Virus record (IMG/VR): IMGVR_UViG_2579779116_000018
Span: 1 to 37,371 of that record
Reading direction: 5' to 3' (one strand)
Length of the DNA stretch: 37,371 nucleotides
DNA from: a virus
Lineage: Duplodnaviria > Heunggongvirae > Uroviricota > Caudoviricetes
The position numbers and the translations under genes are program-made. This document shows positions 1,625 through 24,697 of this stretch, one piece after another. How positions within the stretch are numbered: position 1 is the stretch's first letter; every line of letters begins with the position of its first letter. Under the pieces are notes generated by a model. It was not told the DNA's origin. It worked only from the letters and a program-made list of their open reading frames with translations, and ran no database searches.

Positions 1625-1637
1625 CGCGGGGCTTTTT
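1613..1637 (+). terminator. rho-independent terminator overlapping stop codon
   Basis: AGCCTCGC-ctagc-GCGGGGCT hairpin (one G-U pair) followed by TTTTT; stop TAG of the upstream gene lies in the loop. Confidence 0.6.
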
Positions 1638-1651
1638 ACTATGGGGTTATT

Positions 1652-3331: not shown

Positions 3332-3367
3332 GCGGCCTAAATCGACGTATAACGAGCTAAAACAGTT

Positions 3368-3396
3368 AAGGGGTACATTCGTACCCCTTTTTAATT
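3368..3396. terminator. bidirectional intrinsic terminator between convergent genes
   Basis: Perfect hairpin AAGGGGTAC-attc-GTACCCCTT followed by TTTTTAATTT; sits between the recombinase stop (3331) and the minus-strand gene stop (3405). Confidence 0.7.
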
Positions 3397-3404
3397 TAAT
3401 TGCA

Positions 3405-4580: not shown

Positions 4581-4639
4581 AGTAGTTTCCTCTAAAATAA
4601 TAAGTTCACTACTATTTATTAGAGAAAATTGTCTTACTA

Positions 4640-4667
4640 TTGCATTCTCTATCTGAATGTGTATAAT
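4640..4667 (+). promoter_or_regulatory. putative sigma70 promoter for the 4735 gene
   Basis: TTGCAT (4640-4645), 16 bp spacer, TATAAT (4662-4667), in the divergent intergenic region 4581-4734. Confidence 0.4.
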
Positions 4668-4734
4668 ACGCGACCCTAAATCCCAAACCAACCATATTGA
4701 GGTTATGCCTATAAGTTAAAAAAGTGAGGTCTAT

Positions 4735-5304
4735 ATGATTCCAGTAATGGCTAAAGATATTGTTTTTACTCCTAAATCCTCCCGTGCTGTAACTCCATCG
4801 GCATTAGAACAACGCATTCTGACTCACATCAAAGATAAGGACTTACCATTAGTCTTTCATGGCTTTCTGGGTGAGTTTAAAGGGCTTCATTCAAGAATTG
4901 CTCTAACATGTACCCGATGCGGTAATAGAGCCGACAAATCAGCTACTAACCTGCTTAATGAAGGTAAACGATGTGTTTGCTTCAATAGTGACTACTTTCA
5001 ATATAAAGCGGGTGTGCCTTATCTCTATGTAATGAAGTCTGGGGATATTGGTAAATTTGGTGTTACAAAGTCAATCATCAAGCGACGTGTTAATCTGGGT
5101 GTACGCAATCCCGGTCATAACTTTGATATTGTCTTTGCTGGTGAAATGCCATCAATGAAACATGCTTTAGCCACTGAAAGAGCAATAAAGAGATTACTGG
5201 ATGTGGGTATAGGCGGGATTGAATACGGCAAAACTGAAACATTCCACTACTGCAATAAATCACTAAACAATATAAAGAATATTGCAAGTGTGGAGTGGAA
5301 CTAA
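4735..5304 (+). CDS. Zn-ribbon / T5orf172 domain protein, paralog C (189 aa)
   Basis: RBS GTGAGGT before ATG; one GEFKG...C..C...RCVC repeat and C-terminal PYLYV...GKFGVTKSIIKRR T5orf172-like segment. Confidence 0.75.
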   Translation: MIPVMAKDIVFTPKSSRAVTPSALEQRILTHIKDKDLPLVFHGFLGEFKGLHSRIALTCTRCGNRADKSATNLLNEGKRCVCFNSDYFQYKAGVPYLYVMKSGDIGKFGVTKSIIKRRVNLGVRNPGHNFDIVFAGEMPSMKHALATERAIKRLLDVGIGGIEYGKTETFHYCNKSLNNIKNIASVEWN

Positions 5305-6794
5305 TGCAAGATATTAAAATTCATTTTCAAGATTACAGTTTCGTTAAGGTTGATTGCTCTCCTTCTATCGGAATGGAATTAAGAGATTATTTCTCTTTTG
5401 AGGTTGAAGGGGCTAGGTTTAGCCCCCGATACAAGTATTCAGGCTGGGATGGACGAATAAGACTGTTTACGCATGAGAATACCCTACCAATTGGACTATT
5501 AAAAACGTTGGGTGTCTTTGTTAAAAATATGGGGTATTCAGTCTGGATTGACCCGCGATTGCTTGAGAAGGAAGATGTAACCAAAGAACAGATTGATTCA
5601 TGGATTGATTCTTTAGAAGTGTATTCCGGTAGCAATAAAATCAATCCTTACTGGTATCAGCGTGAAGCAGTCTTTCAGGGTATTCATAATCGCCGTAGAA
5701 TGCTGGTTCTTCCTACCAGTGCGGGTAAGTCATTGATTGCTTGTATGCTGTCTCGTTGGTACTTAGAGCATTACACCGGAAAGGTGTTAATCATTGTCCC
5801 GACTACATCGCTAGTGGTTCAAATGAGGGATGATTTCATCGATTATCGGTTATTCCCTTATGAAGCAATCCATACAATGATGAGTGGTAGCGGGAAACAT
5901 CCGGGAGACAGGTTAATCACGGTTAGTACCTGGCAATCAGCTTGCAAGATGCCTCCTGAATGGTTCAAACAATATGGAATGTTGATAGTTGATGAATCGC
6001 ATAAGGCTAGTGCCAAAAATATTACCAATATCATTAACGGAATGAATCATTGCCAATTTAAGATCGGCATGACTGGTTCCCCGAAAGAATCAAAGTGCCA
6101 TTTAATGCAGTATGTCGGGCTTTTCGGTGATATTTCCAAGATCGTGAGTATTGACCGCCTGATGGAAGAAGGGCAGGTGACAAAACTGAAAATTAACTGT
6201 CTTTTCCTTCGTTATACCGATGAGGAATGTAGCGCGGTTAAGGGGAGAGAATATGCGGAAGAGATCAAGTATATTACATCTAACCCACGACGTAATAAGT
6301 TTGCTTGCAATTTGGCGCTAAAACTCGCTAAGAAGGGCGAAAACGTATTCCTGATGTTCCGCAATACTAAGCACGGAAAACTTATGTATGACGCGTTACA
6401 GAAGGTACACGACAAGGTTTATTATATTGACGGTGGAGTTAAGACAGAAGAACGTGATGAATTTAAGAAAATGGCGGAGGGTGACACCGGGATCATTTGT
6501 GTTGCGTCTTATGGTGTGTTCTCTACTGGTGTTTCAATTAAGAATTTGCACCATGTTATTTTCGGTCATCCAGTGAAGGAATCAACTATCGTTCGTCAGA
6601 GTATCGGTCGTGCATTGCGTAAACATGGTTCTAAGGATATTGCAACGGTCTGGGATCTTATAGATCATCTGTGTATATTCGGTCGTAACGGAAAAATCAA
6701 GCATAAAAATTATGCGGTAAAACATGCACTTGAGAGAATCCGCTATTATCTAACCGACAAGTTCAGATATGCAACTAAAACAATTGCTATATAA
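5304..6794 (+). CDS. SF2 DEAD/DEAH-box DNA helicase (about 496 aa)
   Basis: Walker A LPTSAGKS, DESH box (LIVDESHKAS), motif III MTGSPK, motif VI VRQSIGRALR. Start taken as ATG 5304 (RBS GGAGTGG) rather than the ORF-track GTG at 5295. Confidence 0.85.
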   Translation: MQDIKIHFQDYSFVKVDCSPSIGMELRDYFSFEVEGARFSPRYKYSGWDGRIRLFTHENTLPIGLLKTLGVFVKNMGYSVWIDPRLLEKEDVTKEQIDSWIDSLEVYSGSNKINPYWYQREAVFQGIHNRRRMLVLPTSAGKSLIACMLSRWYLEHYTGKVLIIVPTTSLVVQMRDDFIDYRLFPYEAIHTMMSGSGKHPGDRLITVSTWQSACKMPPEWFKQYGMLIVDESHKASAKNITNIINGMNHCQFKIGMTGSPKESKCHLMQYVGLFGDISKIVSIDRLMEEGQVTKLKINCLFLRYTDEECSAVKGREYAEEIKYITSNPRRNKFACNLALKLAKKGENVFLMFRNTKHGKLMYDALQKVHDKVYYIDGGVKTEERDEFKKMAEGDTGIICVASYGVFSTGVSIKNLHHVIFGHPVKESTIVRQSIGRALRKHGSKDIATVWDLIDHLCIFGRNGKIKHKNYAVKHALERIRYYLTDKFRYATKTIAI

Positions 6795-6796
6795 CA

Positions 6797-6827
6797 AAAA
6801 AGCGCCCACTAGAGGCGCTTTAATTTT
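6797..6827. terminator. bidirectional intrinsic terminator
   Basis: AGCGCC-cactaga-GGCGCT hairpin flanked by A-run on one side and T-run on the other, between convergent helicase and M15 peptidase genes. Confidence 0.65.
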
Positions 6828-7179
6828 ATCCATTCCATCGTGATTTTTTCGATCTGGAATCGATATGCGTAAAGGTTTTATATTTGCCTAAGCCGTATTG
6901 AGTAGGATATTTCCCATCAAGATAAGCATGGACAATATCAGGGGAGACACCCTTGATCACAATGTCAGCCGCACGGCCTCGAACGTGATAGCTGTTGGTT
7001 GCACCGCCTACATTCTTGTTATGAGTTGGGCAACGGTTCCCACTGTTAATAATTACTGGTTTCCCGAAGTGTTCGCGTACATCCTCAAGAATTACCAGTA
7101 ATTCAGCGTCGATTGTATCATAATCACATTTTCCACATTTACATTTAAATTCCTTGCGAGAAAAATGTTTGCTTAACAT
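6826..7179 (-). CDS. peptidase M15-family zinc peptidase, candidate endolysin (117 aa)
   Basis: N-terminal LSKHFSRKEF and SGNRCPTHNKNVGGATNSYHVRGRAADI ... THID match the M15 (VanY / L-Ala-D-Glu peptidase-like) metal-binding signature; strong RBS TAAGGGGGT; last gene of the late operon. Confidence 0.7.
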   Translation of the reverse strand: MLSKHFSRKEFKCKCGKCDYDTIDAELLVILEDVREHFGKPVIINSGNRCPTHNKNVGGATNSYHVRGRAADIVIKGVSPDIVHAYLDGKYPTQYGLGKYKTFTHIDSRSKKSRWNG

Positions 7180-7188
7180 ATTACCCCC

Positions 7189-7536
7189 TTAGATCATTTC
7201 GAAGATATAACCAATAAAGCGCATACCCTTGATATAATAAGGAGCAGTGCCTACACACACCGCGCGTGCATCACCCAGACAGTTAAAGCTATAAGGATTA
7301 ACTACATCGACTTCTTGCCCGACACGAAAACGATACTTAGGACGTTTAGCCAATGTAGCGACACAAAACACGGTCCCTTTTTCATGATCGCGGATACATT
7401 CTTTATATTGTTTATGTTTAACTCTCTTCGCCTCAAAATCATAGGTCATTGATTCTGGGCTAATGCCATTAATAAAAATACCGGAAAGCTGATCGACCGG
7501 ATAAGTAGGAAATTCAGTGAAAATATTTTTAGCCAT
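7189..7536 (-). CDS. hypothetical protein (115 aa)
   Basis: RBS TGGGGGTATAAC before ATG; tightly packed in the late operon; no motif recognised. Confidence 0.6.
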   Translation of the reverse strand: MAKNIFTEFPTYPVDQLSGIFINGISPESMTYDFEAKRVKHKQYKECIRDHEKGTVFCVATLAKRPKYRFRVGQEVDVVNPYSFNCLGDARAVCVGTAPYYIKGMRFIGYIFEMI

Positions 7537-7574
7537 GTTATACCCCCATAAGATTCTATGAGGGTATTTATGGA

Positions 7575-8258
7575 TTAAACGTATTTCATGCGCGATTTAA
7601 TGTGCTTATTAATGTTCTTAAGCATCATTTCCTCGTTGCTTTCCCACGATCCTAGCGTCGAATAACGAGTAGAAATTTTATCCGATTTAACGGCAACAAT
7701 TCGCTTACTCTGTTTCTGGATGCGTTTCTCTAAGCGACGTTTTGCCACCGCCGATCCATTCCTAGCGCGTTTGGTTCGGGATTTCTTAGGCTTGTACTTC
7801 TTCATGATAAAAGTCCCTTCCTTGTTCTCTACCTTGATGAAGTTGCCGTTTTCGATGTTACGCATCATCTTACCGCCTTTGATGGCCTTAATGTTCCCGT
7901 GGGAGTCTAAGACCTTACCGTTGGCGATTGGAACTAGCTTATTGATTTTGCCCCCATCGAAATAGTGTTTCAGATAGTCGTCCTGACTGCCGATCTTCTT
8001 GTCCTTATCCCTTGCGCCCTTGATGAAGATTTGGTGTCTGGTCCCTGATCGGTTCTTGTAGTTGGTATTACCTACAGCTTGCTGAGTCCAGCGAGTAGGT
8101 CTATCAACATTCTTGTTAATCTTCTTCTGGAGTGCTCTGGAAGCAAAGATCGCCCCTTCCCCTAGTGCCCTTTCGAATGTATCGGTTGCCTTTTCAGACC
8201 ATTGCCGTAACGCTTTCTTAGTCCTTAGAGCGTTTCGTTTATTGGTACTGGTTGCCAT
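7575..8258 (-). CDS. hypothetical basic protein (227 aa)
   Basis: RBS AGGGGGCTAAC before ATG; Lys/Arg-rich; function unknown. Confidence 0.6.
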   Translation of the reverse strand: MATSTNKRNALRTKKALRQWSEKATDTFERALGEGAIFASRALQKKINKNVDRPTRWTQQAVGNTNYKNRSGTRHQIFIKGARDKDKKIGSQDDYLKHYFDGGKINKLVPIANGKVLDSHGNIKAIKGGKMMRNIENGNFIKVENKEGTFIMKKYKPKKSRTKRARNGSAVAKRRLEKRIQKQSKRIVAVKSDKISTRYSTLGSWESNEEMMLKNINKHIKSRMKYV

Positions 8259-8259
8259 G

Positions 8260-8430
8260 TTAGCCCCCTAATAACGAAAAGACCCCCGCCAGTGTCCTTA
8301 GCAATTGTTCATCCACGGTCATAGCCGGGAGTTCAAGCCCAAAGGACGTTAGCAGAGGTCTAATTGCTACGTTATAAGTGAGGGCGATAATCAAGAGATA
8401 ACCAAAATATTTCTTAAGTTTATTCTTCAT
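8260..8430 (-). CDS. small membrane protein (56 aa), possible lysis accessory
   Basis: Hand-found ORF MKNKLKKYFGYLLIIALTYNVAI... with RBS AAAGGGGTGAAT; one hydrophobic helix; no Cys, so not a lipoprotein o-spanin. Confidence 0.4.
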   Translation of the reverse strand: MKNKLKKYFGYLLIIALTYNVAIRPLLTSFGLELPAMTVDEQLLRTLAGVFSLLGG

Positions 8431-8448
8431 ATATTCACCCCTTTATTA

Positions 8449-8727
8449 TTATTTTTGTCTGAGTAAATCGATAACTTGGTCAAATTTAGCGTCCATAGCA
8501 ACCACTTTCTTTTCTATACCGTGAAGGGTTTGTTCCATGCGATAAACTCTCTCGGCGATCTGGTCATGGTTACTTTGCATTGTTTCAAACTTCTGATTAA
8601 ACAATGCATCATTGGACTCTAATTTCGACAATCTATTTTCAGTTGCTAATTGATTTCGGTGAAGTCTCCATAATCCACCGCAAATTAAGGCGATAACACC
8701 GATACCGCCATATATAATTTCAGTCAT
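8449..8727 (-). CDS. membrane protein with N-terminal TM helix and coiled coil (92 aa), possible holin or i-spanin-like
   Basis: MTEIIYGGIGVIALICGGLW TM segment followed by a charged helical region; RBS GGGGGCGTA; follows the terminator after the tip gene. Confidence 0.5.
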   Translation of the reverse strand: MTEIIYGGIGVIALICGGLWRLHRNQLATENRLSKLESNDALFNQKFETMQSNHDQIAERVYRMEQTLHGIEKKVVAMDAKFDQVIDLLRQK

Positions 8728-8767
8728 TACGCCCCCGATATTTTTATATAGTTTAATGGCAGAATTA

Positions 8768-8813
8768 TTTAGATAAAAATAATCCCGCCTAACTCAAAAG
8801 AATTAAGCGGGAT
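8768..8813 (-). terminator. intrinsic terminator downstream of the tail tip gene
   Basis: On the minus strand, AATCCCGC...GCGGGATT stem (8 bp, 18 nt loop) followed by ATTATTTTTATCT. Confidence 0.55.
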
Positions 8814-8833
8814 TAATTATTAAAATTAAATTT

Positions 8834-11800
8834 TTAAGAAACAGTAATACCGGTAGTGGCTTTTTTAGTTACCATTACAGTTAAATCACTGATCCATGTG
8901 CTAGGCGTCCAGTTGTTGATTGCGCTTGATTGCACTTCAAAGGTCAAGGTCACAGCACCTTTACCCGCTGGCATATCAATAACACCTGAGTAAAGACCAG
9001 TATTACCGCCATACGCCCTATTATACAACTCTGACCCATTCTTACGAACAATAAGGCGACAGGTGTCGTAATAGGTATTATTGTTCGACCCTTCACGCGC
9101 TCGCAATCCACCAAAACTAATTGCCGGAATAACGATTTGACGATCGAACTTGTGATCATCTTCAACGCGAACAGTGACCGTACCCTGTGGATAACCAGCA
9201 TAACCAGTATCAACGTTAACATCACGATGCGGGAACTTACGTCCAATCACCTTAACGAAATCACCCTTAACCTGAGTAGCTTCGAGCATACCCTTAATAA
9301 CACAGCTAGAGTTAATCGTGACGTTGTTCAGAGTACCAGAATCAGCAGTGATATTACCTTTAACGGTTGCATTCATGAACGTAGCGGACCCGTTCTTGTT
9401 GATATGCCATCCGGTCGATCCGTTCCAGTTGGAAGACTGGATATAGTTACCGATTTTAGCGTTATCAATTGCACCGTTTACGATCTTCGCGTTAGTGATT
9501 GCCCCGTCCTGAATCTTCGCGCTGTTAATTGCAGCATTGCCGATTTTAGCCGTGGTAATCGCCGCATCATTAATCTGGGCTGTACCAATTGCAGCATTAC
9601 GAATCATCGCATTATCGAGATAAACCTTGTTACCTTCGATACCAAACGGGCATACTTCCGATCCGTTCTGTGGAGCTACCGCGATTTTATCAGCATTAAA
9701 GATGATTCTCGTCGGTTGCGCCGGATCGTTGGTTGCGCTCATGTGAATACCAGCCACGCGACCATCTGCATTAACTGCCAGATTGTATTTGCTGTTAATG
9801 GTTCCTTTCAAAGCATCGATTTTTACATCTGCTTCCTGATTCACACCAGCAATCTTGCCATCCATTTCTACCCGAACTTGATCAATCTTACTTGCGCTTG
9901 CTGCCTCACTGGTAGCAATAGCTTGTTTCAGGGTAGTAGCAGATGCGCTAACTTCTTTGGTGATATCGCCTTTCAGTTCAGCTTTAACCTGATCAATCTT
10001 AGTTGCACTGGCTTGATCACCAGAGACAATAAGACTCTTTAAGGTATCGGCTGAGGCTTGCACCGTCTGCCCTGTTTCGGTAGTGATTTGCTTATGCATT
10101 GCATCAATTTTAGCATCGGCATTAGCGCCAGCTTGAGCAATAGCATCCGCGATAGTTTCATCTAAGCGGTCTTGTAAACCAATCAGGTCTTCCAGTGCTT
10201 CTTTGTCCTGATCGTCCCAGCTAATGGTAGATTTCATTTGCATGAAATACGGTTCAGACCAAACAGCATCATCCATACCGAAAATATCGTAGTGAGCACC
10301 ACGGATATAATAATCACCGTCTGCCAAATCAAAGGAAGTATGGCTAACACTATTCGTGCTTACCGCCCTTGCATCGGAGAAAGTGTTATCGGTTGCATAC
10401 TGGATGATTGACCCTGCATAGTCATGTTCTACGTCATCCGCCCAGCTAACAAACGCAGTATTAAAGCCACCACGCGCACTAAAACCTTTCATTGGCTTAT
10501 GTTGTGGGTTGATAGCCACTAAACGCGCTGGGGCGCTCTCTGAGTTGTTATAGCCCTTAGCCGATACTTCTACCGTCAGTTGACGCGAAAGGCCGTTAAA
10601 CTGGTTCATATCAAGCGTATAAGTCCATGATTCAGGATCGCGGGTACGGTACTGAATAGACTTACCAGCCTTGTTAGTCACCTTGATAATGTATGCTTCA
10701 AACAGGTCACTAAACTTGTTAGTTTCACCGTTGATCTCAACATCTAAGCCTTGCTGGTTTTCCCATTCGATAATCAGATCATTACCTTCGAAAGTTCCTG
10801 GCGTGCTACCCTGATTTTTGATTCGAATAACCGGAGTCGGCAATTCATAGGTAACAGTCGGATTCTGGTTAATCAGTTCTACCCAATCGGATCGAGCGAT
10901 GATACCGAAAGCACAAACTCGGTAATCATAAGAGCGATCTTTAGCCAGTGCGTTGACACTGAAAATTTGCTGTGAAGTCTGTCCCAGCTTAATCCAGTTA
11001 GGCGATCCACTTACACGGTAATCAATCTGGAAACCGTAGCGGTTAAAATCTTCCGGTGCGTCCCATGTCAAAGTTACGTTTTTACCGTGGATTGTCTCAC
11101 CAGTTGCCTTAATTCTGAAATTAGTCGGTTTCTGTACTGTCATTGAATCCGGTAAACCGCTTGGTCGGTTGTCTGGGTTAGCCGCATAGTTCAGGTCAGT
11201 ATAAACCTGAGAATTATATTCTGTGGCAGTGATAGTCATCATCCCAGCAATACCAGAATCAATCGAGCGATCAATTGCAGTAATACGCCATAAGGAATTA
11301 TTCAGCTTCAATTCATCATAGGTTACGCTGATAACGTCCCAAACTTCGGCAGTGAATGCGTCAGTAGTCATAAAGCTGATAACCTGAGTGATACGAGATT
11401 TATTTCGTTCAATGCTCGCAAGTTTATCAATCTGGTCTTTAGACTTAACAAAACGATATTCAATATCTTTAGCGATAATTCGACCATCTTGACGAATAGT
11501 AGCATCGTTTTCAGCATCAGCCGGATAACGTAGCATTTGCTCTGAATAGTCGATTGATGGTTCTTGATACATCGCGTTAATGGTATTGAAATAACCGTTA
11601 GTGCCACCTGTTTTCAGTGATACCTTACCCATCATGATATTGTCTTCATTGAAGGTATGCTTAACAATATCAGGAGCATCCAGTTTCAGGGTAATACGTC
11701 CAAAGGATTCGAACATCACCCCGCCGAAAGTCTGCATAAGGCTAGTCAAGTTCTCTTTAAAGCTGGCGTTCGGATCACATGCACCGTTTGAATGTAGGTC

Positions 11801-12610
11801 CATCTGGCGTACTTGTTTACGTACTTTCAGGAATGAATCAACGTTAATGTTTTCAATTGGTACGGATAAGCCATATTTTTCATTTGTTAGGTAGTGGAAA
11901 ATCTGATCCACGCCGTTAGTGCTAGCCTCAATAGCATTGGTTTCAAGGTTACGGATTTTTAAGCCCATAACATCAACCGCTACTTGGCTATTAGGCTGGA
12001 GAATATCAACACCAGCAGCAAGAGATTTATCATCACGACGTAACACAATACACATGGTTGCAATACCATTGCCTTTGTAGTTGTCGTTCCAGTCTGATCC
12101 TAAATGACGTTTTGCCAGTGACAAAGCGGTGTTAGGATTCTTACCCGTGCGAAACTCAACTTCTAAAACTTTCCGGTATTCTTCTTTAATGTTGCCTTTG
12201 TCCAGTACACCATCACGGATCGTCATGTTCTTACCAACAAGAACATTTTTGTTATCGATAAACAGTGCTTTGTAATGGTCGATTTCACCCTCGGCAATAG
12301 CGAAGATTTGCACTAACTTATTGTTTTCTTGCTTGGAAATTGCTTTGTAAACGCAGATTGCACCTGTGCGGGTAGTACCGAAAAGAACGGGTAATACTGT
12401 CTTAGGATCGTTTGATGTTCCTAGTGTCACCGCATTATCTGGGCTTTGTACTTTCGGTGTTTTCGGTGCGCCTACAGTGGAAGCGATCAAGGTCATTGCA
12501 CCAGCAGCCATACCGATAGCGACTGCGGTCATAACAGAAAATGTTGCAGCAGCAGCCATCCCAGCAGACGCACCAGCAATAACCGCGCCTACCAATACTT
12601 CAAATCCCAT
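8834..12610 (-). CDS. tail tip / central fibre protein: gpI C-terminal-like N-terminus fused to gpJ-like host specificity protein (1258 aa)
   Basis: N-terminal Gly/Ala-rich hydrophobic region then PKTPKVQSPDN...LPVLFG resembles the C-terminal half of lambda gpI; central FN3-like repeats; AxI-type beta-helix repeats (NAAIGTAQINDAAITTAKIGNAAINSAKI); C-terminal about 150 aa (SGTLNNVTI..SC.IKG...DDHKFDRQIVIP...VIDMPAGKG) resemble the lambda J receptor-binding end. Start ATG overlaps upstream stop (TAATG). Confidence 0.85.
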   Translation of the reverse strand: MGFEVLVGAVIAGASAGMAAAATFSVMTAVAIGMAAGAMTLIASTVGAPKTPKVQSPDNAVTLGTSNDPKTVLPVLFGTTRTGAICVYKAISKQENNKLVQIFAIAEGEIDHYKALFIDNKNVLVGKNMTIRDGVLDKGNIKEEYRKVLEVEFRTGKNPNTALSLAKRHLGSDWNDNYKGNGIATMCIVLRRDDKSLAAGVDILQPNSQVAVDVMGLKIRNLETNAIEASTNGVDQIFHYLTNEKYGLSVPIENINVDSFLKVRKQVRQMDLHSNGACDPNASFKENLTSLMQTFGGVMFESFGRITLKLDAPDIVKHTFNEDNIMMGKVSLKTGGTNGYFNTINAMYQEPSIDYSEQMLRYPADAENDATIRQDGRIIAKDIEYRFVKSKDQIDKLASIERNKSRITQVISFMTTDAFTAEVWDVISVTYDELKLNNSLWRITAIDRSIDSGIAGMMTITATEYNSQVYTDLNYAANPDNRPSGLPDSMTVQKPTNFRIKATGETIHGKNVTLTWDAPEDFNRYGFQIDYRVSGSPNWIKLGQTSQQIFSVNALAKDRSYDYRVCAFGIIARSDWVELINQNPTVTYELPTPVIRIKNQGSTPGTFEGNDLIIEWENQQGLDVEINGETNKFSDLFEAYIIKVTNKAGKSIQYRTRDPESWTYTLDMNQFNGLSRQLTVEVSAKGYNNSESAPARLVAINPQHKPMKGFSARGGFNTAFVSWADDVEHDYAGSIIQYATDNTFSDARAVSTNSVSHTSFDLADGDYYIRGAHYDIFGMDDAVWSEPYFMQMKSTISWDDQDKEALEDLIGLQDRLDETIADAIAQAGANADAKIDAMHKQITTETGQTVQASADTLKSLIVSGDQASATKIDQVKAELKGDITKEVSASATTLKQAIATSEAASASKIDQVRVEMDGKIAGVNQEADVKIDALKGTINSKYNLAVNADGRVAGIHMSATNDPAQPTRIIFNADKIAVAPQNGSEVCPFGIEGNKVYLDNAMIRNAAIGTAQINDAAITTAKIGNAAINSAKIQDGAITNAKIVNGAIDNAKIGNYIQSSNWNGSTGWHINKNGSATFMNATVKGNITADSGTLNNVTINSSCVIKGMLEATQVKGDFVKVIGRKFPHRDVNVDTGYAGYPQGTVTVRVEDDHKFDRQIVIPAISFGGLRAREGSNNNTYYDTCRLIVRKNGSELYNRAYGGNTGLYSGVIDMPAGKGAVTLTFEVQSSAINNWTPSTWISDLTVMVTKKATTGITVS

Positions 12611-13029
12611 TATTCACCCCCGAATCTATAAACTTGTTCATAGTCAATGTCTGAAACAGGAATGGTCATCCAGATACCATCTTCTTCAACGAGGCCATAA
12701 CCGGAATAATGAGGAACTACGGAATAATAATTACGGTTTCCTAATTTGTGGGCTGTGACCAGTAAGTCGCCGTCCTGTAAATCATCAGTGACTAATTTGA
12801 AATGTTTCTTAATTGGTTGAAGGATATTTGAATACCCGCTTAATTCTTTGCAGATTTTCAAGCCTTCTTCTTTAGTTGAATATTTTTTATAAAGAGAATT
12901 ATATAGGTCAGTACCAGCGAGAATATCGATGATCTTACATGCAATTAGATTGCAATCATTCTCACCCTGAACGAACTCCTGACCTATTAAAGAATTGATG
13001 TAATCGGTGATAAGCCTAGTTTTTAGCAT
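12610..13029 (-). CDS. putative tail tip assembly protein with NlpC/P60-like Cys/His motif (gpK-like), about 139 aa
   Basis: Position between minor tail genes and the J-like gene; ENDCNLIACKI Cys motif and downstream His residues; start placed at internal ATG 13027-13029 with RBS GGAGGT. Family call is tentative. Confidence 0.5.
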   Translation of the reverse strand: MLKTRLITDYINSLIGQEFVQGENDCNLIACKIIDILAGTDLYNSLYKKYSTKEEGLKICKELSGYSNILQPIKKHFKLVTDDLQDGDLLVTAHKLGNRNYYSVVPHYSGYGLVEEDGIWMTIPVSDIDYEQVYRFGGE

Positions 13030-13075
13030 GTTGAATACCTCCATGCTGTTATTTACTAGGCTTAGGGAGAAGGGA

Positions 13076-13846
13076 TTATTTCTTGAAGTCTTCGTACATT
13101 CTACGAAGGTTGTATTTTGGATGGCCTAAGCTAACCATGATTTGACTCAATTTAACCGCGCCGGGTTTACCGTTTTCAATCCACACGCGCCGGATTTCAT
13201 CGTAATGCTGCCAACAGCCTTGACCTTTAGCAATACGTATAGAATGTGTATATTTCTTGGTAGAGCTTTCTGGTCGCTTGCGCCCTAGATGTGCTTTTCT
13301 AATCTTTTCGCGTGTTTCTTCTGATACAGGTTTACCATAACGGGGGTTATTCTCTCCACGAGTAGCAGCCGATAATTTAGCTAATATTTCTGGGTTTGTT
13401 ACTTTTTTGCCTCTCATTGCACTAGGTTTACCATAGCGATGGTTCTTTTCACCCATTCGAGATGCCGACATTTTAGCTCTAGATTCCGGTGTATGTTTTC
13501 TTCCGTAAAAAGGATGATTTTCACCACCATCAAAACCACCGACACCACCAGGAGCTATATTAAGACATACACCACGCCCCCATTTTTCGCGTGCTGCCTC
13601 CACTAACAGGATTTCACATTCAAACGCTTCCTCGGCAGTATCAAACAATTTTGAACGAACAACTTCAAATTCATATATCGGGGTTTCTGATTCTTTATTT
13701 TTACGCTTCATCATTTTAATAACTTTACCCGATCCCACATATCCATCGTCTAGATTTGTGGTTGTTCTTTTTCCGACGTAATGATAGATTTTACCAGAGC
13801 GATTAGATTTAATAGTGGTGTGATAAACGTAATGGAATTTTTGCAT
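13076..13846 (-). CDS. GIY-YIG homing endonuclease with NUMOD3-type repeats (256 aa)
   Basis: N-terminal HYVYHTT...SGKIYHYVGK...GYVGSG (GIY-YIG module) and three copies of N-x-P-x-Y-G-K/R-x-x-S/T-x-E-T/S-R-x-K-I/M (NUMOD3-like DNA-binding repeats); own RBS; inserted between minor tail genes. Confidence 0.85.
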   Translation of the reverse strand: MQKFHYVYHTTIKSNRSGKIYHYVGKRTTTNLDDGYVGSGKVIKMMKRKNKESETPIYEFEVVRSKLFDTAEEAFECEILLVEAAREKWGRGVCLNIAPGGVGGFDGGENHPFYGRKHTPESRAKMSASRMGEKNHRYGKPSAMRGKKVTNPEILAKLSAATRGENNPRYGKPVSEETREKIRKAHLGRKRPESSTKKYTHSIRIAKGQGCWQHYDEIRRVWIENGKPGAVKLSQIMVSLGHPKYNLRRMYEDFKK

Positions 13847-13920
13847 ATAGGAAAGCCCTCAAAAATAAAGAATCTCTCCTATATTTATTGAGGGCTTTAG
13901 TGTGCCATTTAGTTTCAGTC

Positions 13921-14574
13921 TTATTTTTTAGACGAGTGCCAGCGGCTTTCGCTATTCCACTTCCCGGCACGAGAGAAGAATAGATCATTCTCGTTTCCGG
14001 CATAGGATCGGTGGATACCATCGGAGGCATGACTACGAGCGTTTTTATCTAGAACTTCCCAGATACTATTAAGCTGAAATTCCGATTCGTTTTTACACTC
14101 ATCATCTTCATGTTCGATGTTAATACCGATGGAATCGACCACCCCACGGAAAACAGGGTAAGTAGTTTCAACCTTGCCCGTGTTAGGGTTCAGGAACACC
14201 ATTTCGATTTTTACATCAGATTTATCGAATTGCTTGTTTCGAATCAGGGTAATGTATTCCTCGCGAACGTTAGAAACGGTTACGTTAATCCCGTTGTTGT
14301 TGATCTCCTTCTCTTCGGTATTCGATGAGATTTGAAGAAAATCACCCGTTGCGAGATACGTAAATCCGTTATAGTCCAAATCGAAATACCCATCTGTAAG
14401 CCGTAGAACGTCCCCTGACGCGGTTACTACTTCGATAATGTGAAACATCGATCCAGTGGAGAAAAGCTGCGGTAGCGTCAATCTAGACACGTTCTGACCT
14501 GTCTGGTCGTTGTAGACCTCGATGAAGTCCAGATTAGTGCATAGTTTGCTGAATGATTCCTGAATAGTTGCCAT
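13921..14574 (-). CDS. minor tail protein (217 aa)
   Basis: Start at internal ATG 14572-14574 overlapping upstream stop (TAATG coupling); syntenic with lambda L/M-type minor tail genes downstream of the tape measure gene. Confidence 0.55.
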   Translation of the reverse strand: MATIQESFSKLCTNLDFIEVYNDQTGQNVSRLTLPQLFSTGSMFHIIEVVTASGDVLRLTDGYFDLDYNGFTYLATGDFLQISSNTEEKEINNNGINVTVSNVREEYITLIRNKQFDKSDVKIEMVFLNPNTGKVETTYPVFRGVVDSIGINIEHEDDECKNESEFQLNSIWEVLDKNARSHASDGIHRSYAGNENDLFFSRAGKWNSESRWHSSKK

Positions 14575-15134
14575 TATACATTCTCCACTAATTCGAATTT
14601 CATCTTGCCAATCTGGGCGATCTTCCAATCGATATTTTCAGTTTTGAGAACAAATTCGCCTTCTACGTTCTGATACTTGATCACCTCACCAGCCAGGACG
14701 TTTTGACGCAAGTTAGGGAAGAGTTTCATTTCACCACCTGATTTCACGTCTTCGGTGATCGTGTAGATTTTCTTGTGGTTCTCAAACTGGATGACAGTTC
14801 CCGCTTTCAGTGTTCCGGTGAAGTTGGAGAGTCTCACCTTACGCCCACCGCGAGCAGTACCAGCAGCAGCCGTTACCATCTGGCGTACATCACCTGTATA
14901 TTTTGAAAAGTAAGACAGTGGCACACTGAAAGGACGACCAAAAAGGTGACGTGCTACAAATTCTTTTACTTCGTTAATATCCTGAGCCATGAAATTCGCG
15001 GTAAATTCTGCTTCGTAAAAATGGATGCCAGTAAAGCGACGCTGGAACTTACCGGAGATAGATTGCGCCTTGAAGAAAGGTTGTTTTGATTTAAGAGTAA
15101 AATCTGTGATTTTAATATTCTTTGATTTGAACAT
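14574..15134 (-). CDS. minor tail protein (186 aa)
   Basis: First gene after the tape measure gene; its SD (GGGGG) lies in the 3' arm of a hairpin (15141-15179). Confidence 0.55.
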   Translation of the reverse strand: MFKSKNIKITDFTLKSKQPFFKAQSISGKFQRRFTGIHFYEAEFTANFMAQDINEVKEFVARHLFGRPFSVPLSYFSKYTGDVRQMVTAAAGTARGGRKVRLSNFTGTLKAGTVIQFENHKKIYTITEDVKSGGEMKLFPNLRQNVLAGEVIKYQNVEGEFVLKTENIDWKIAQIGKMKFELVENV

Positions 15135-15140
15135 AGAAAA

Positions 15141-15179
15141 GCCCCCATAGTTTTATGATTATTTATCACTATGGGGGGC
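15141..15179 (-). promoter_or_regulatory. intergenic stem-loop sequestering the SD of the downstream minor tail gene
   Basis: GCCCCCCATAG...CTATGGGGGC stem (10 bp, 18 nt loop) between the tape measure stop and ATG 15134; followed by UUUUCU-AUG on the minus strand. Confidence 0.45.
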
Positions 15180-15185
15180 TTTTAA

Positions 15186-17540
15186 TTACATCTTACGACG
15201 CTGTGCGTCTTCTACCGCCTGAGCAACTAACTTAGCGTGACGTTTGATAGCATCCATAACCATCTTGTCTGAGCTATTAACATTGCCGTTAATGTTCAAA
15301 GGTGCGTTAACTTCAATCGGCTGAGAGTTACCACCACCTGATTTTTGAGCAGCAAGGAAGTCTTTCAAATCACCGTTAGTACGCTGATCAACTACTCGTT
15401 CACCCTTATCAAGCAACCATGTACCCTCACGAGGGATGTTATCAATACCATCATGAGCCATACCGCTAACGTTAGTAGACTTGATGTTTGCGATGCTCCC
15501 CATGTTCTGAGAAACAGCCAATGCAGCAGCAGCGATTTTTTGACCTGTGGTTACGTTGGTCGGATCGTTCCATGCTTCGGTAGCAGCCGTCCACATGTTC
15601 ACCGTCGCTTGTCCAATGGAGAATGCCTTATGAGCATTGAAAGCCATCTGCATAGCTTTAGTGTTTTCCTGCCCGAAGAGAGTCATTGCAGCAGCAAAAC
15701 CGCCATACATATCATCGGCTATTGACTGGCGAGCATCAGCATATTTCTTTTCAATTGCAGCCATCCGTTTTTGATGGTTTTCATTGAGTTTTTCTAATGC
15801 AGCCATCCGTTTAGCTGGATCATTAATACCATCAATATTGAGTTTTTCGGTCTTATAATCTTGTTCAGCTTCCGATTTCTCTTGATCGATTGCATTAAAT
15901 TTAGCAAACGGGTTATTTGAATCCTGATAGTCTAAGCTATTAGTCAATTGATTGGTTTTAAAACCATCCATTCCCTGTAACTGACTATCAATCTGAGAAT
16001 AGTTTTGCTCGGTATCATTCACACGACGCATATATTCTTCGTAGGAGATAGCTTTACCATCAAGTAACCGTTTATGGCTTTCTAGCTCGTTGTCCCTGAT
16101 TTGTTGCAAAACTGTTAAGGCATTCAGAGCATCAATCGGATCAGCACCCAACATCATTTTATAGATGTTTTCTGCGTTCTGATCTAACAGTTGCTGACGT
16201 TTAGCGGCTGCGTCTTGCTGAGAGATTAAGCCCATATCTAAAGCAGTGTCTAAATCTTTCAAGCTGGCTTCTAACTGCTTGTTTTGAGAAGCAATAGACG
16301 CGGCTGTCTGTCCTTGCAATTTAACATCAAGAGCATTCAGTCGCTTGATTGCATCCTCGCGTGCTTTCTGTGCTTTTTCTGCGGCTTCCTTAGCCTTTTT
16401 AGCTGCCTCTTCCGCTTTCTTCTTGGCTTCTTCTTGTTCTTTTTTCGATGGTCCGGTGACGCCTCCACCTTGACCCGTTGGGGTAAATCCGGTATCCGAT
16501 TTATTTCCAGTGATAGTAATTACCGGATCACCGTTTTTATCACGGGTAACGCCTTCACTATCCACCCAACGATCAGGATAATTTGGTTTATTGTTGAAGC
16601 TGGCTTGTCCACCCGCTAGACCAGTAGAACTATAACCATGCTTGTTAATAAAACCACCGTTAGCCATAGCCATATTCTGGCGAGCTTTTTCAAACCTTTC
16701 ATTAAAAGTCTTTAATGCGTTGAATAAAGCGGTCTTTTCCCAATCTTTATCAAACCAGTTGTAAAGATTATTCATCCCTTCAACAACTGGATTTAGTGCA
16801 TTTGCAGCCATACCCTTTAAGTTATCGGTAAGGGTATCCATATTTTTAGAGAATTTATTATATTCTTCGGCTGTGTCATTGGTGATTTTAACAGTTTGCT
16901 GATTAATGGCGTTTACAGCTTCCTGATAAGATCCGTATTTCTGCAATTCATCAGCCATATGACTTGAATCACTGGCTAACGATTCCATCATAAACTTAAC
17001 ATCAGCGATAGACGCACCAGCCTTGCGCATATCATAGAAGACCTTGATCGCCGCTTTCATCCCGCCTTGTGGATCGTTCATAAACTCGGCATAATCTTTA
17101 ATCTTCAAACCTACACTTTCTAGGTCGTCTTCAATACCGCCACCGTTACGCCATGCATCAGCCAGCTTATCTAAGGTGTCTTTGTTAATATCACCAAATT
17201 TCTCAACGGTTAAGCCAGTACCGGAGAATTGCTTCTCTAATTTCTGGAGTGTTTCGACGGTTAAACCAGTTGCTTTTGAAACTTCGCTGTATTCCTTTAC
17301 ATAATCACCGATGGCATTTGCAGCAGAAATAGCGCCAGCAGCCAAACCAACAAAACCACCAGCAGCCAAAGCAAGCGATCCACCAGTTCCGCGAAGGGTT
17401 CCACTTAAACTAGATAAACCACCAGACAAATCAAGATTCATTGCCCTTTCTGAAAGGTTATCAAGCATCTCTATCGCCTGATTGGTACTTCTCCTTAGAC
17501 CGTCATTATCTCCTTCTATTGTTACTATATGTCTTGTCAT
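15186..17540 (-). CDS. tail tape measure protein (784 aa)
   Basis: Long alpha-helical protein with Gly/Ala-rich N-terminal region and Lys/Glu/Ala coiled-coil segment, directly downstream of the G/T chaperone pair; RBS GGGGTAATTT. Confidence 0.85.
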   Translation of the reverse strand: MTRHIVTIEGDNDGLRRSTNQAIEMLDNLSERAMNLDLSGGLSSLSGTLRGTGGSLALAAGGFVGLAAGAISAANAIGDYVKEYSEVSKATGLTVETLQKLEKQFSGTGLTVEKFGDINKDTLDKLADAWRNGGGIEDDLESVGLKIKDYAEFMNDPQGGMKAAIKVFYDMRKAGASIADVKFMMESLASDSSHMADELQKYGSYQEAVNAINQQTVKITNDTAEEYNKFSKNMDTLTDNLKGMAANALNPVVEGMNNLYNWFDKDWEKTALFNALKTFNERFEKARQNMAMANGGFINKHGYSSTGLAGGQASFNNKPNYPDRWVDSEGVTRDKNGDPVITITGNKSDTGFTPTGQGGGVTGPSKKEQEEAKKKAEEAAKKAKEAAEKAQKAREDAIKRLNALDVKLQGQTAASIASQNKQLEASLKDLDTALDMGLISQQDAAAKRQQLLDQNAENIYKMMLGADPIDALNALTVLQQIRDNELESHKRLLDGKAISYEEYMRRVNDTEQNYSQIDSQLQGMDGFKTNQLTNSLDYQDSNNPFAKFNAIDQEKSEAEQDYKTEKLNIDGINDPAKRMAALEKLNENHQKRMAAIEKKYADARQSIADDMYGGFAAAMTLFGQENTKAMQMAFNAHKAFSIGQATVNMWTAATEAWNDPTNVTTGQKIAAAALAVSQNMGSIANIKSTNVSGMAHDGIDNIPREGTWLLDKGERVVDQRTNGDLKDFLAAQKSGGGNSQPIEVNAPLNINGNVNSSDKMVMDAIKRHAKLVAQAVEDAQRRKM

Positions 17541-18280: not shown

Positions 18281-18787
18281 TTAAGAGATTTTCAAAGTCT
18301 GCTTAGTGCCAGTCTTCTTAATGTTATTGAGGAAAGCAGCCGGAGGATTGCTTAACCAATAGTAATGAAAACCGCTTTGCATACTGTTATAAGGAACAGT
18401 GACAGCAGCACCACCCAAATTAACGGTTATATTCCCCGCTCTACCGTTCTGGAGATATACAGCCATAGTAGGAGTACCGCCATTGAATTGACCAACGATA
18501 ACGCCAACCAGATGGCCTACGCCCACGTTTTCGGGGTTCTCCATAGATCCTTTACCGCGCATGTCAGTTACTGGATAGTTTGAAGCAGTTACACCCCAGT
18601 TATTACCCAATGAAGTAGACCATGCAGCAGTAGCAACAACCGTATCCATACCACGACCAGCCATTGCCGACATATTACGCGGAGCCGGAACTTTTAAAGC
18701 TGTTAATGCTTCTTTCATCCATCGCTTACCCGTCACTGATACAGCCGATGACCCGATCCAGCCGGGAACTTTAACGACATTTGCCAT
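18281..18787 (-). CDS. hypothetical structural protein (168 aa)
   Basis: Gly-rich protein between the tail tube candidate and the chaperones; RBS GGAG; function unknown. Confidence 0.55.
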   Translation of the reverse strand: MANVVKVPGWIGSSAVSVTGKRWMKEALTALKVPAPRNMSAMAGRGMDTVVATAAWSTSLGNNWGVTASNYPVTDMRGKGSMENPENVGVGHLVGVIVGQFNGGTPTMAVYLQNGRAGNITVNLGGAAVTVPYNSMQSGFHYYWLSNPPAAFLNNIKKTGTKQTLKIS

Positions 18788-18802: not shown

Positions 18803-18829
18803 AAAAAAGCCCCACCATTAAGGCAGGGC
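18803..18829 (-). terminator. intrinsic terminator (copy 1 of an identical pair)
   Basis: Minus-strand RNA GCCCUGCC-uuaa-GGUGGGGC (two G-U pairs) followed by UUUUUU; the same 27 nt recurs at 24578-24604. Confidence 0.7.
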
Positions 18830-18946
18830 TTATAATTAATCTTTAGCCTTGCGGCTTCGTTTAGCTGTGGCTTTCGCCGTAACAACCTCAATTTCAGGAA
18901 TCACCGTAGGTTCATCTTGAATTGGCTGGGGTTGTTCTTCGAAAGT

Positions 18947-19478: not shown

Positions 19479-22400
19479 TTATTTAGTTGCTTTGAGTTCG
19501 GCTAATTCAGCTTTCGTTTCGGCAAGTTCTTTAGCCATAGCATCAAACTTAGCGCTCATTTCCTGAAACGCCTTAATTAAAAGAGCGTTGACAGCAGAGT
19601 TAGAAATTGTTAAGATCTCTTCTGGCTTATCAGGATCGCCGATCTTAGAAGTTGTTACTGCTTCCGGCAATTCTTTTTCAAGATCCTGAGCAATAATACC
19701 AACTTCATGAGCGATAACAGTGCGGTCCGTCAAAGACTTAACCTTATCGTAGGTGTACACAGTCAAGCGATTAACTTTATCGGTGGCATTCTCCTTATAC
19801 TCTTCCTTGTTGATTTTCAGACGAGCATCAGAACGAATATAAACATCGTTAAAGTTACCATTGCGTCCAGCTTGGAAATCACCGGAGGCGTTAAAGTCAA
19901 AGTTTGTGGTATGGATATGAAGACGTGCCATAGCATTAGTAATAACACCACTAGGAACGTGTACACCCATTGCCGCGATGTGGTCTAAACCCCATTTGGT
20001 CGCTTTCCATACGTTATATGCGGAAGTTTGAGCATTAGGACAATCAACCAATAAGCCAGCAGCGCGAGTTTTCCATTCTGACCATGCACCACCTTGTACT
20101 TCTCCGCGAATCAAACCACGGTCGCTACCGTTTGCATACCCACGTTCTAAGCGAATCATACCAGTCTGGAAAACATGGTCAAATTCTCCGCTGTTATAGT
20201 TTCGAATGCGCATTTGACCTGAGCCATCACCCCAGATAACACCACGGTTAGTACCATTAGCATCCTTAAACCAGAGTTCTTTATTACCATCTCTATACAT
20301 CTGAATTTGGTTATTGGTACGCAAAACATTAGTAACCACCAAATCACCATTTATCCGAGCACGACCACCCGTTTCTAAACTACCAGCAACTCTGAATTGA
20401 ATCGAACCGTTAGAATCACGCTGAGAATATAGATGATAGCTTGTTTCGTCAGCAAGTTCCCACACCTGAGCGCGAGTTTCATTACCCCAAGATTTAACAA
20501 AGAATACAGATTTCGATCCTTCGTCGTTACGTTCCCAATACAGTCTGCTTCCAAGATGTGTGGTTGCGTTCACTTCAACTCGTTTACGTTCGTTGTTGAG
20601 ACGCATTAAATGATTACCAGCATCGCTACCACCTAGTGTAACGTTACCATTGGCTAGGCTATAGATGAACGGCCTAAAGGTATTCCACGGACCCATAGTG
20701 TCGCCTGATTTTGTGCTCATCAGATAAACGTTACTACCGTCATTTCGCCACCATGAACCATAGTTACCATATACAGTACGGAAGCCATCAGCATATAAAG
20801 AAATGAATTGACCGTTAGTATAAACTCGCTTCATATTGCCAGTTTGAAGTTCTATCTGGCCGTCAATATGTTGACGAATAGAACTACCGCCTACATCACT
20901 ATACCATTCAAAAACGTTAGTATCAGCATTGGCATAACCGATCCATCCTTGACGAGTAATATCTCCAGTACGATTATCTTGAAACGCAATATGGTTGGAT
21001 TGACCAGCAGGTCGGCGTAGTGTAATGGCATTAGATCCGCCATTTAACAGCATACGACCAGAAATAATATTACCTTTATGAGTCCCAGCAATAGAGCTAC
21101 TAGATTCAACGGTTAGAATATCCTGAGCATCAGTGGCACCAGTAGCCAGACGATAGCTGGCACCTTGAACAGTCTCATGCCAGATCATTTCATTATAGTT
21201 ACTACGGAATTTACGAATATATTTCCGTCCAGTACCTCTATCATTGCTTAGATGAACAATGTCATAGCTGTTTTGTGTATTGTCGTCAAAACTCAACACA
21301 CCACGTTTATTTTCGGTGTTGAAAAGAGTTACGTTGCGACCACCGATAACACCAACGGAAGGTTTAATTAACGTGGCTTCCGGCGTATCATAAACCGTCA
21401 AACTTACATAAACAGATTTCCCATATTCGACAATAACGTTATCGGTATAACGCTGATATTTCACGTAGATATCATAGTTATCACCGGAAGTATTGACAGC
21501 AAATACCTCAAAATCTTTGTTTGTATTTCTACGGTATGCAATTACGTTAAGACCTTTAGGTCTATCGTTACCACTACGCAGAAGAATTTCTACTACGTCA
21601 ACCTGATCATATGCCGTAACGCTGTAACCATTACCACCATGAATACGGAAAAACACACTACGCCCGTTTTGTGGAATTGTTGCGGTTGCCAATTTGAAAT
21701 ATGCAGATACGTTTTCGCTAGAATTAGGAACAGACATAACGACGTTTTTAACAAACATCTTATCAACTTCTGCTTTAGTGTATGCACCAATCTCGCCAGG
21801 AGTCGGCTTATCACCTTCGTGATACATCTTATAGCTAAAGTTCTTCTGTCCTTCTCTATCAAAACCATAGGTTTCAACACGAGATCCACCAGACGCATAA
21901 CGGAAAGTAAATCCGCGACCGTGCGCTTTACCGGCAGAATGAGGAACGTTAAGGGTCAGATCCATGAGTCCATCTTGTCCATTGGTACGGAAAGCACCAA
22001 AGTAGTTAAGATCTCGCGCTGTCTGATCTTCCAGATAGTTAGCTGTCTTGCTTAACAAATACCCGCCATGCTTAGTATTGGTATTCTTCTTGATGTAAGC
22101 AGCATCGGCACTACCTTCAATAGAATCAATTCGCTGGTTAGCTGCGGCAATTGCGGCATCAGTAGAAGATTTATTCTGGTCTACCTTGTTGTTAATAGCG
22201 GTATGGTTGCTGTTAACAGTGCCAGTAAGGTTACTGATTTTAGTATCAGCATCTTTCTTGTTGTCGGAAACGACCTTTTCAATCGCTGTTTTGTTAGCTG
22301 CAACCGTGCTAGTTAAGCTAGAAATTTTGTTATCTGCATCGGTTTTATTTGCAGTAACAGTTTTAGTTAAGTTGCTAACGTTGGTGTTAGTGGTATTAAC

Positions 22401-24577: not shown

Positions 24578-24604
24578 AAAAAAGCCCCACCATTAAGGCA
24601 GGGC
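24578..24604 (-). terminator. intrinsic terminator (copy 2 of an identical pair)
   Basis: Identical 27 nt to 18803-18829: GCCCUGCC-uuaa-GGUGGGGC then UUUUUU, immediately downstream of the capsid gene. Confidence 0.7.
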
Positions 24605-24697
24605 TAATTATTATTTTGCTTTCGGTGGACGTCCCACCTTTTTAGCTGTGGCTTTCGCCGTAACTACCGGAATTTCTTCCGGCAATTCTTCGTTATT

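Follow-up and report, generated by a model that had tools for sequence, protein, structure and literature searches.

The window, meaning the whole 37,371-nucleotide stretch that was analysed (positions 1 to 37,371 of IMG/VR record IMGVR_UViG_2579779116_000018), is a temperate, integrase-bearing, siphovirus-type prophage of Escherichia coli, Shigella and Salmonella with a length of about 37 kb. On its minus strand, between a baseplate-hub-like tail gene and a DUF6950 gene, lies an 845 bp cassette (13076–13920) consisting of a 74-nucleotide (nt) structured leader and an open reading frame (ORF). The cassette very probably carries a free-standing GIY-YIG homing endonuclease gene of the T4 Seg-like type that occupies the hub/DUF6950 gap and spreads by classical intron-less homing; cleavage and the target site are inferred from sequence. 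Alleles with the cassette are referred to as filled and those without it as empty. The features of the locus are the following.

13076–13846, minus strand: ORF of the predicted homing endonuclease, 256 amino acids (ATG 13846–13844, TAA 13078–13076), assigned by profile matches; the exact protein is widespread in E. coli and Shigella assemblies.
13847–13920, minus strand: 74 nt leader, part of the cassette and missing from empty alleles.
13852–13898, minus strand: conserved terminator-like hairpin with an 11 bp stem (arms 13888–13898 and 13852–13862; dG −23.5 kcal/mol, z −4.55).
13921–13929, minus strand: left copy of an imperfect 9 bp direct repeat, with which the hub-like gene ends (AAAAAATAA).
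13076–13084, minus strand: right copy of the 9 bp direct repeat, with which the endonuclease ORF ends (AAGAAATAA); it is identical to the hub-gene end of empty alleles.
13030–13075, minus strand: 46 nt spacer common to filled and empty alleles, holding an invariant 17-mer, CTAAGCCTAGTAAATAA (13049–13065), and the GGAGG for DUF6950.
13921–14574, minus strand: baseplate-hub-like tail gene, the upstream flank, 217 amino acids from the ATG at 14574 (Phage_phiJL001_Gp84_N / DUF2163; RefSeq 'DUF2163 / baseplate hub domain').
12610–13029, minus strand: DUF6950 gene, the downstream flank, 139 amino acids from the ATG at 13029 with GGAGG in front; the mechanical ORF start is 13044.

The endonuclease ORF was found where a preliminary description, made from the sequence of the window alone, had placed it, on the minus strand with an ATG start and 256 codons for amino acids. 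A stretch of 74 nt lies ahead of it, and another of 46 nt separates it from the likely start of DUF6950, the second ATG (13029), which has GGAGG eight nt upstream.

Complete E. coli genomes (5,426) were searched for the junction, which was present in 56. Six of these prophage copies were filled (about 11%) and 50 were empty, the empty group including a few genomes with a partial junction match only. NZ_OW848980 and NZ_AP027850 are examples of E. coli sequences with the empty junction. Among 30 close IMG/VR relatives with the junction, 26 were empty and four were filled, two with the allele of the window and two with an allele of 77% amino-acid identity. The presence/absence polymorphism anticipated in the preliminary description was borne out by both sets, and the comparison that it proposed, a search of relatives for an uninterrupted junction, did recover endonuclease-free alleles. 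Alleles with 100, 99, 89, 77, 64 and 54% amino-acid identity to the window protein all lie at the hub/DUF6950 junction; the 89% allele is from E. coli and the 64 and 54% alleles are from Salmonella prophages. A split allele (172 + 83 amino acids) was found at the same junction. More distant relatives, namely L034/L035 (54% amino-acid identity) and Escherichia phage DCP80 (43%), are without the gene, and a terminator hairpin occupies their corresponding spacer.

The borders of the cassette are identical across all filled loci. Empty alleles read ...TCG AAG AAA TAA followed by TCCCTTCTCCC..., with 46 nt to the ATG of DUF6950. Filled alleles read ...TCT AAA AAA TAA, then GACTGAAAC ... leader, ORF ... 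GACTTC AAG AAA TAA, and again TCCCTTCTCCC. Two other E. coli-type alleles have cassettes of 842 or 848 bp. Since the 9 bp direct repeat bounds the cassette, the hub-like protein and the endonuclease both end in K-K-stop; on the sequences, this is most simply explained by a duplication of the nine terminal bases of the hub gene at the time of the original insertion. A transposon-like insertion, which this repeat had brought to mind, was rejected, terminal inverted repeats and a transposase both being absent. The cassette also has no compositional anomaly, its G+C content (0.37–0.43) being that of its flanks.

The protein was divided into three regions.

13535–13846, minus strand: catalytic domain, residues 1–104, divergent SegE-like GIY-YIG (Y8, Y23-V24-G25, E78, N96), by profile, structure and PADLOC.
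13232–13534, minus strand: linker and DNA-binding region, residues ~105–205, with three NUMOD3 repeats (Pfam PF07460, three stretches); it is the part that is swapped among alleles.
13076–13231, minus strand: C-terminal three-helix domain, residues ~206–256, presumed to bind DNA (AlphaFold2 helices 212–224, 230–239 and 248–255, pLDDT 79–91; PADLOC).

The three NUMOD3 repeats, which are C-terminal to the nuclease domain, were detected with PF07460 at E = 1.4e-20 (73.4 bits, cutoff 20.4), and their coding region contains an internal direct repeat of 55 nt (13328–13382 and 13424–13478). The protein matched PHROG 314 'homing endonuclease' (3.9e-32) and is about 30% identical across its full length to T-even 'site-specific intron-like DNA endonuclease' genes. 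PADLOC HEase profiles covered residues 4–105 (PDLC03676, 3.8e-12), 108–194 and 211–255 (PDLC03675, 1.6e-11). In the catalytic domain, the 'GIY' tyrosine is Y8 (H-Y-V-Y) in the first β-strand, in register with the GIY motif of I-TevI, and the 'YIG' motif is Y23-V24-G25; E78 and N96 align with E75 and N90 of I-TevI. Both homologue alignments (A1 and A2) have Y8, G25, E78 and N96 invariant, and A1 has Y23 invariant as well. The subfamily motif is DDGYxGSG, of which D34, Y36 and S39 are kept. Profile A1 searched against the PDB retrieved the I-TevI catalytic domain (1LN0) at 1.2e-6 with GIY, YIG, E75 and N90 in register, and the NUMOD3 region aligned with the I-TevI DNA-binding domain (1I3J, E = 0.015). 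A phmmer search against the PDB found nothing, and NCBIfam gave only TIGR01453, over the NUMOD3 part and below cutoff, so that neither assigned the N-terminal domain to a family.

The AlphaFold2 model has an N-terminal domain of order β-β-α-β-α (pLDDT 81–92), an α/β fold with a three-stranded sheet, followed by low-confidence linkers and a confident three-helix C-terminal domain. With the whole chain as the Foldseek query, the I-TevI catalytic domain (1MK0) came first in the PDB, weakly (E = 0.12, prob 0.80). The same program gave 114 matches at E ≤ 1e-3 in BFVD, mostly Seg-like endonucleases and including T4 P04523; a 96-residue RB3 homing endonuclease domain matched with TMt 0.89. As judged from profiles and model, the 256-residue protein is a Seg-like GIY-YIG endonuclease with a divergent catalytic domain and a predicted cleavage activity. 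The free-standing GIY-YIG homing endonuclease that the preliminary description had recognized in the tail block is thus supported by profile and structure evidence, with Pfam PF01541 silent.

The mobility of the cassette was assessed from its alleles and flanks. No difference was found (0/845) in nine of the ten loci with the 100% allele, copies of the window itself being excluded; L044 differed at 1/845 positions and L052 at 8/845. The flanks of the 100%-allele loci differ at 26–51/1200 positions on the left and 23–109/1246 on the right (2–9%), mostly synonymously, and an equally diverged cassette would be expected to show roughly 15 or more silent differences. A locus retrieved by a flank search rather than by a protein match (L019) was also at 0/845. 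At least four left-flank haplotypes known from empty alleles also occur with the cassette. Among E. coli alleles the identity is at least 92–97% over the first ~430 nt, which comprise the leader and catalytic domain, and over the 3′ end; the NUMOD3 middle is at 37–70% nucleotide identity between alleles and matches Salmonella alleles in places, so that the alleles are mosaic. The ratio of nonsynonymous to synonymous divergence (dN/dS) between alleles is 0–0.33 in all three domains, with dS saturated between old alleles; the protein is therefore maintained by purifying selection. Because the 89, 77, 64 and 54% alleles, including those of Salmonella prophages, are all at this junction, the lineage has long been resident there. 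On these comparisons, the allele of the window has spread recently and the endonuclease lineage is old at the junction. The recent acquisition proposed earlier consequently applies to the spread of this allele (0/845) and not to the lineage, which has alleles down to 54% identity at the site.

Cassette status is perfectly associated with position −7, which is A in filled alleles and G in all empty alleles compared (r2 = 1); r2 is 0.55–0.73 out to −24, and no association is left farther than ~100 bp away or anywhere on the right-hand side. In the left flank, linkage between the cassette and single-nucleotide polymorphisms (SNPs) vanishes within ~25–50 bp. Positions −10, −13 and −16, all silent, are partially associated with cassette status, and the hub-gene 3′ end occurs as the variants CATTCATCGAAG, CATTCTTCTAAG and TTTAGCTCTAAG in addition to the L027 type described below. 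In those empty alleles whose junctions were read out, I-TevI-style CNNNG motifs lie at −14..−10 and −11..−7, of which the second alone is present in all of these alleles. The motif at −11..−7 is destroyed in every filled allele and that at −14..−10 in all but the L052 type. As a cleavage cue, this pattern is suggestive only, and the motif preference of I-TevI may not be that of the present enzyme.

Several results count against the assignment and against homing. The window protein has no match to Pfam PF01541 or PF19835 even at E ≤ 10. The N-terminal domains of six of 12 family members do match PF19835 SegE_GIY-YIG (3.2e-8) or PF01541 (2.2e-6) on their own; as these homologous domains match and the window protein does not, its tie to the two families is transitive. 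A stricter profile, from which PF01541-annotated members were left out, had I-TevI at the top at an E of only 0.17. No arginine aligns with R27 of I-TevI, the subfamily having G-x-[R/H] (K26-R27 here). Most of the 100%-allele loci came from a search for the exact protein, and such a search excludes nonsynonymous variation by design. Ordinary pairs of left-flank SNPs lose linkage as fast as the cassette does, with no specific co-conversion signature, and the 9 bp direct repeat at the borders is not a product of double-strand-break-repair homing. Since background linkage decays equally fast, the linkage test cannot separate homing from general mosaicism, and the candidate signal of co-conversion in the linkage decay was discarded as uninformative.

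Some of these points would also suit a non-nucleolytic DNA-binding protein, for example a co-opted prophage regulator with an inactive GIY-YIG-like domain. The RefSeq/PGAP name of the protein is 'NUMOD3 domain-containing DNA-binding protein', the match to PF01541 is missing and so is the canonical arginine in the alignment. We regard this as highly improbable: the GIY, YIG, Glu and Asn positions are invariant in the family, the motif set is common to the Seg-like group (PF19835), and a regulator needed by the phage would not be missing from ~90% of near-identical prophages.

One empty allele, L027 (IMGVR_UViG_2648501186_000019, ~6640–6710), has a filled-type hub-gene end, TCTAAAAAGTAA, followed by TAATCCC and a 49 nt spacer. 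From its sequence it looks like the scar of an 842 bp cassette deletion from an L052-like allele. This resemblance, together with an imperfect 9 bp direct repeat at the borders that could mediate deletion, is what would be expected if the polymorphism arose by vertical inheritance, ordinary recombination and deletion between the 9 bp repeats, the gene being a relic or passenger; background linkage that is gone in 25–50 bp also shows that markers shuffle across backgrounds without a nuclease. Such a history is nevertheless quite unlikely in view of a cassette without differences on backgrounds 2–9% apart and of purifying selection in all three domains with dS saturated between old alleles. In most empty alleles not only −7 but also −10, −13 and −16 are unlike the filled state, which means that these alleles did not arise by recent deletion from present-day filled ones. 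The distant relatives L034/L035 and DCP80 are without the gene.

Purifying selection in all domains, the persistence at a single site of several alleles with swapped NUMOD3 modules and a position in the late operon, with expression in lytic growth, would each also be compatible with a nuclease kept as a weapon of competition against related phages without the cassette (marker exclusion of the SegF/SegG type). The present data do not separate such a weapon from plain homing. The low frequency (~11%) and the split and deleted alleles fit a selfish cycle better than a maintained benefit, and we hold the weapon to be very unlikely as the reason for its maintenance.

The leader hairpin of the homing endonuclease gene ends five nt before the ATG. 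The only Shine–Dalgarno-like sequence is GAGGG (13856–13860), 9 nt upstream of the ATG and within the 3′ arm of the hairpin. The separate ribosome-binding site proposed for the gene therefore exists as a motif at a suitable place but is enclosed in the stem. The hairpin is kept in every allele, the Salmonella alleles having a compensatory G:C to A:U change and a compensated C:G insertion. The hairpin is followed in these alleles by UUUUCUU and for this reason resembles an intrinsic terminator. The longest stretch invariant across all alleles is a 20 nt block, CCCTCAATAAATATAGGAGA, the loop part of which can pair alternatively with a pyrimidine tract just upstream of the AUG. Expression of I-TevI is restrained by RNA structure over its ribosome-binding site, and that of the free-standing endonuclease gene mobE is damped by an upstream hairpin/terminator and by sequestration of the ribosome-binding site. 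By analogy, we infer that translation of the present endonuclease is tightly down-regulated.

Further signals were noted in and around the leader. Positions 13861–13874 are perfectly complementary over 14 nt to 13689–13702 in the ORF (codons ~49–53), which is unlikely by chance in 971 nt; this complementarity is not conserved in the Salmonella alleles. Hairpins of the form AGCCC...GGGCT occur four times in intergenic gaps of the late operon (15140–15180, 18808–18830, 24583–24605 and 13854–13896) against a chance expectation of 0.35, two of them being identical 23-mers. The hairpin that separates the tape measure gene from the distal tail gene is laid out like that of the endonuclease leader: its stem stops a few nt short of the ATG. 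A T4-type late promoter in the hairpin loop was considered, AATAAATA matching TATAAATA at 7/8 positions, and was set aside as a probable coincidence because no T4-type late transcription factor was identified in the partly annotated window.

Under the homing interpretation, the gene would be transcribed within the late tail operon during lytic growth and its translation would be held low by the terminator-like hairpin that contains the Shine–Dalgarno sequence. Filled and empty genomes would meet in one cell by superinfection of a lysogen or by polylysogeny. The enzyme would bind near the hub/DUF6950 junction of the empty allele via its NUMOD3 and helical domains, the GIY-YIG domain would cut both strands nearby, and recombinational repair off the filled allele would copy the cassette in. 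The splitting of the site and the silent changes in the final hub-gene codons would protect the filled alleles. A cycle of spread, decay (the split 172 + 83 amino-acid allele) and loss (the L027-type deletion scar) would follow.

A more elaborate scheme may be drawn from the same sequences, in which the several NUMOD3-swapped alleles would represent target specificities competing for one locus in an arms race with the hub-gene 3′ end variants, and the leader hairpin would be a two-state switch limiting translation to late lytic growth or superinfection. We consider it unlikely. If it were true, the locus would be a natural system in which to watch the specificity of a homing endonuclease evolve in temperate E. 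coli phages.

The closest known systems were compared with the homing endonuclease of the window. The Seg endonucleases of T4 and other T-even phages (SegA–G; PF19835) are likewise free-standing and lie between genes; in them a GIY-YIG domain of the 'DDGYxGSG' subtype at the N terminus is followed by NUMOD3 repeats and, at the C terminus, by a small domain that binds DNA. This group provides the best sequence (~30%, full length) and structure matches. Seg hosts are large lytic myoviruses, whereas the host here is a temperate siphovirus-type prophage with a length of ~37 kb, in which the gene is placed at a junction of tail-tip genes; the protein falls below the Pfam thresholds of PF19835 and PF01541. 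I-TevI, the T4 td intron endonuclease (1LN0, 1MK0, 1I3J), shares the arrangement of a GIY-YIG domain, a long flexible linker and a DNA-binding region. In contrast to I-TevI, the gene in the window is not intron-encoded, and its protein has no aligned counterpart of R27 and no detected zinc finger. The mobE gene (phage Aeh1/T4) is also free-standing and wedged between or within essential genes; unlike the endonuclease of the window, it is of the HNH family and its host phage is lytic. Trans-homing of mobE in T4 is the subject of PMC2790892. For temperate Cluster J mycobacteriophages, PMC3706429 reports free-standing endonuclease genes and introns in capsid and tail genes, a precedent for homing-type elements in structural genes of temperate siphoviruses; the hosts there are actinobacterial. 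Outside the prophage alleles the nearest relative is P0023 (35%), in a T4-like context beside a gp39-like topoisomerase. The nearest relatives of this kind lie in contexts of T4-like lytic phages, which suggests that the element may have come from a T-even-type phage.

The remaining genes of the tail run are the following.

15186–17540, minus strand: tape measure protein gene.
14574–15134, minus strand: distal tail protein gene.
8834–12610, minus strand: lambda-J-like tip protein gene.

The TAATG overlaps that the preliminary description had seen in this run are real: the stop codon of the distal tail gene overlaps the ATG of the hub gene at 14574 (GTATAATGG) and that of DUF6950 overlaps the ATG of the J-like gene at 12610 (GAATAATGG). 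Its claim that the cassette breaks a translationally coupled junction did not hold, as empty alleles have a 46 nt spacer with its own GGAGG, and DCP80 and L034 have a terminator hairpin there. With a true spacer in the empty alleles, the cassette sits in the sole real intergenic gap of the distal tail/hub/DUF6950/J run. A perfect 10 nt inverted repeat (13011–13020 and 13055–13064) brackets the Shine–Dalgarno sequence and ATG of DUF6950. Its upstream arm is inside the 17-mer at 13049–13065, which is invariant even in the Salmonella alleles, where the DUF6950 protein is 68% identical. This suggests that the DUF6950 and J genes may be under structured translational control. The 17-mer was also considered as the recognition site of the endonuclease and was dropped in favour of the simpler explanation by the 10 bp inverted repeat around the DUF6950 start signals.

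The exact endonuclease protein was found in 210 blocks of public assemblies, some allele of it is present in ~400 assemblies, and GCA_000622265.1 (L051) matches the window across the cassette and 1.2 kb on either side. No DNA-level relatives were found by megablast among the GenBank phage collection, and no relatives of the hub-like gene among the GTDB species representatives. The sole GenBank phage with the hub-like gene is DCP80 (L001; PQ671644; 43% amino-acid identity), a genome of 141 kb filed under Straboviridae/Gaprivervirus. It contains at 4987–12961 a syntenic module of tape-measure, distal-tail, hub, DUF6950 and J-like genes, two of which are unannotated in the record; in its hub–DUF6950 spacer the terminator is followed by TATAAATA. 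The related prophage of E. coli 14EC017 (L061, CP024134) adjoins hicB/ydcR and bears a large serine recombinase. In this filled copy IS421 lies in the gap behind the tail-fibre gene and IS1A splits the J gene (13287–14399 and 22101–22798), so that it is probably defective, though its endonuclease gene is intact.

Positions 578–6794 of the window hold variable cargo beside a serine recombinase (1652–3331), and the 14EC017 prophage has just ~345 bp in its place. The cargo includes two proteins with CapR homology (578–1624 and 4735–5304), a CapR + MUG113/T5orf172 protein (3405–4691, minus strand) and a helicase (5295–6794; UvsW_N/ResIII/Helicase_C) with weak PADLOC matches to PbeA and a type IV restriction helicase. 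It may be a defence or conflict island. T4-like fibre parts were found at 18281–18787 (Gp38_N adhesin domain) and 19479–22928 (a Gp34_trimer + Peptidase_S74 fibre), so that the prophage pairs a lambda-J-type tip with T4-like fibre parts. These parts and the Seg-like endonuclease together point to gene flow from T-even-type phages.

The element is an ordinary representative, not labelled as such before, of a well-known class of mobile elements and involves no new mechanism. It means that a common family of temperate prophages in E. coli, Shigella and Salmonella also harbours circulating Seg-type GIY-YIG endonucleases, which are familiar mainly from the large lytic T-even phages; in the prophages, annotation pipelines give them no name beyond that of a NUMOD3 DNA-binding protein. 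Sequenced strains offer many natural alleles (filled, empty, mosaic, split and scar), so that the locus is a convenient and genetically tractable one at which to study homing from one prophage to another, and also a simple marker of recombination within the family.

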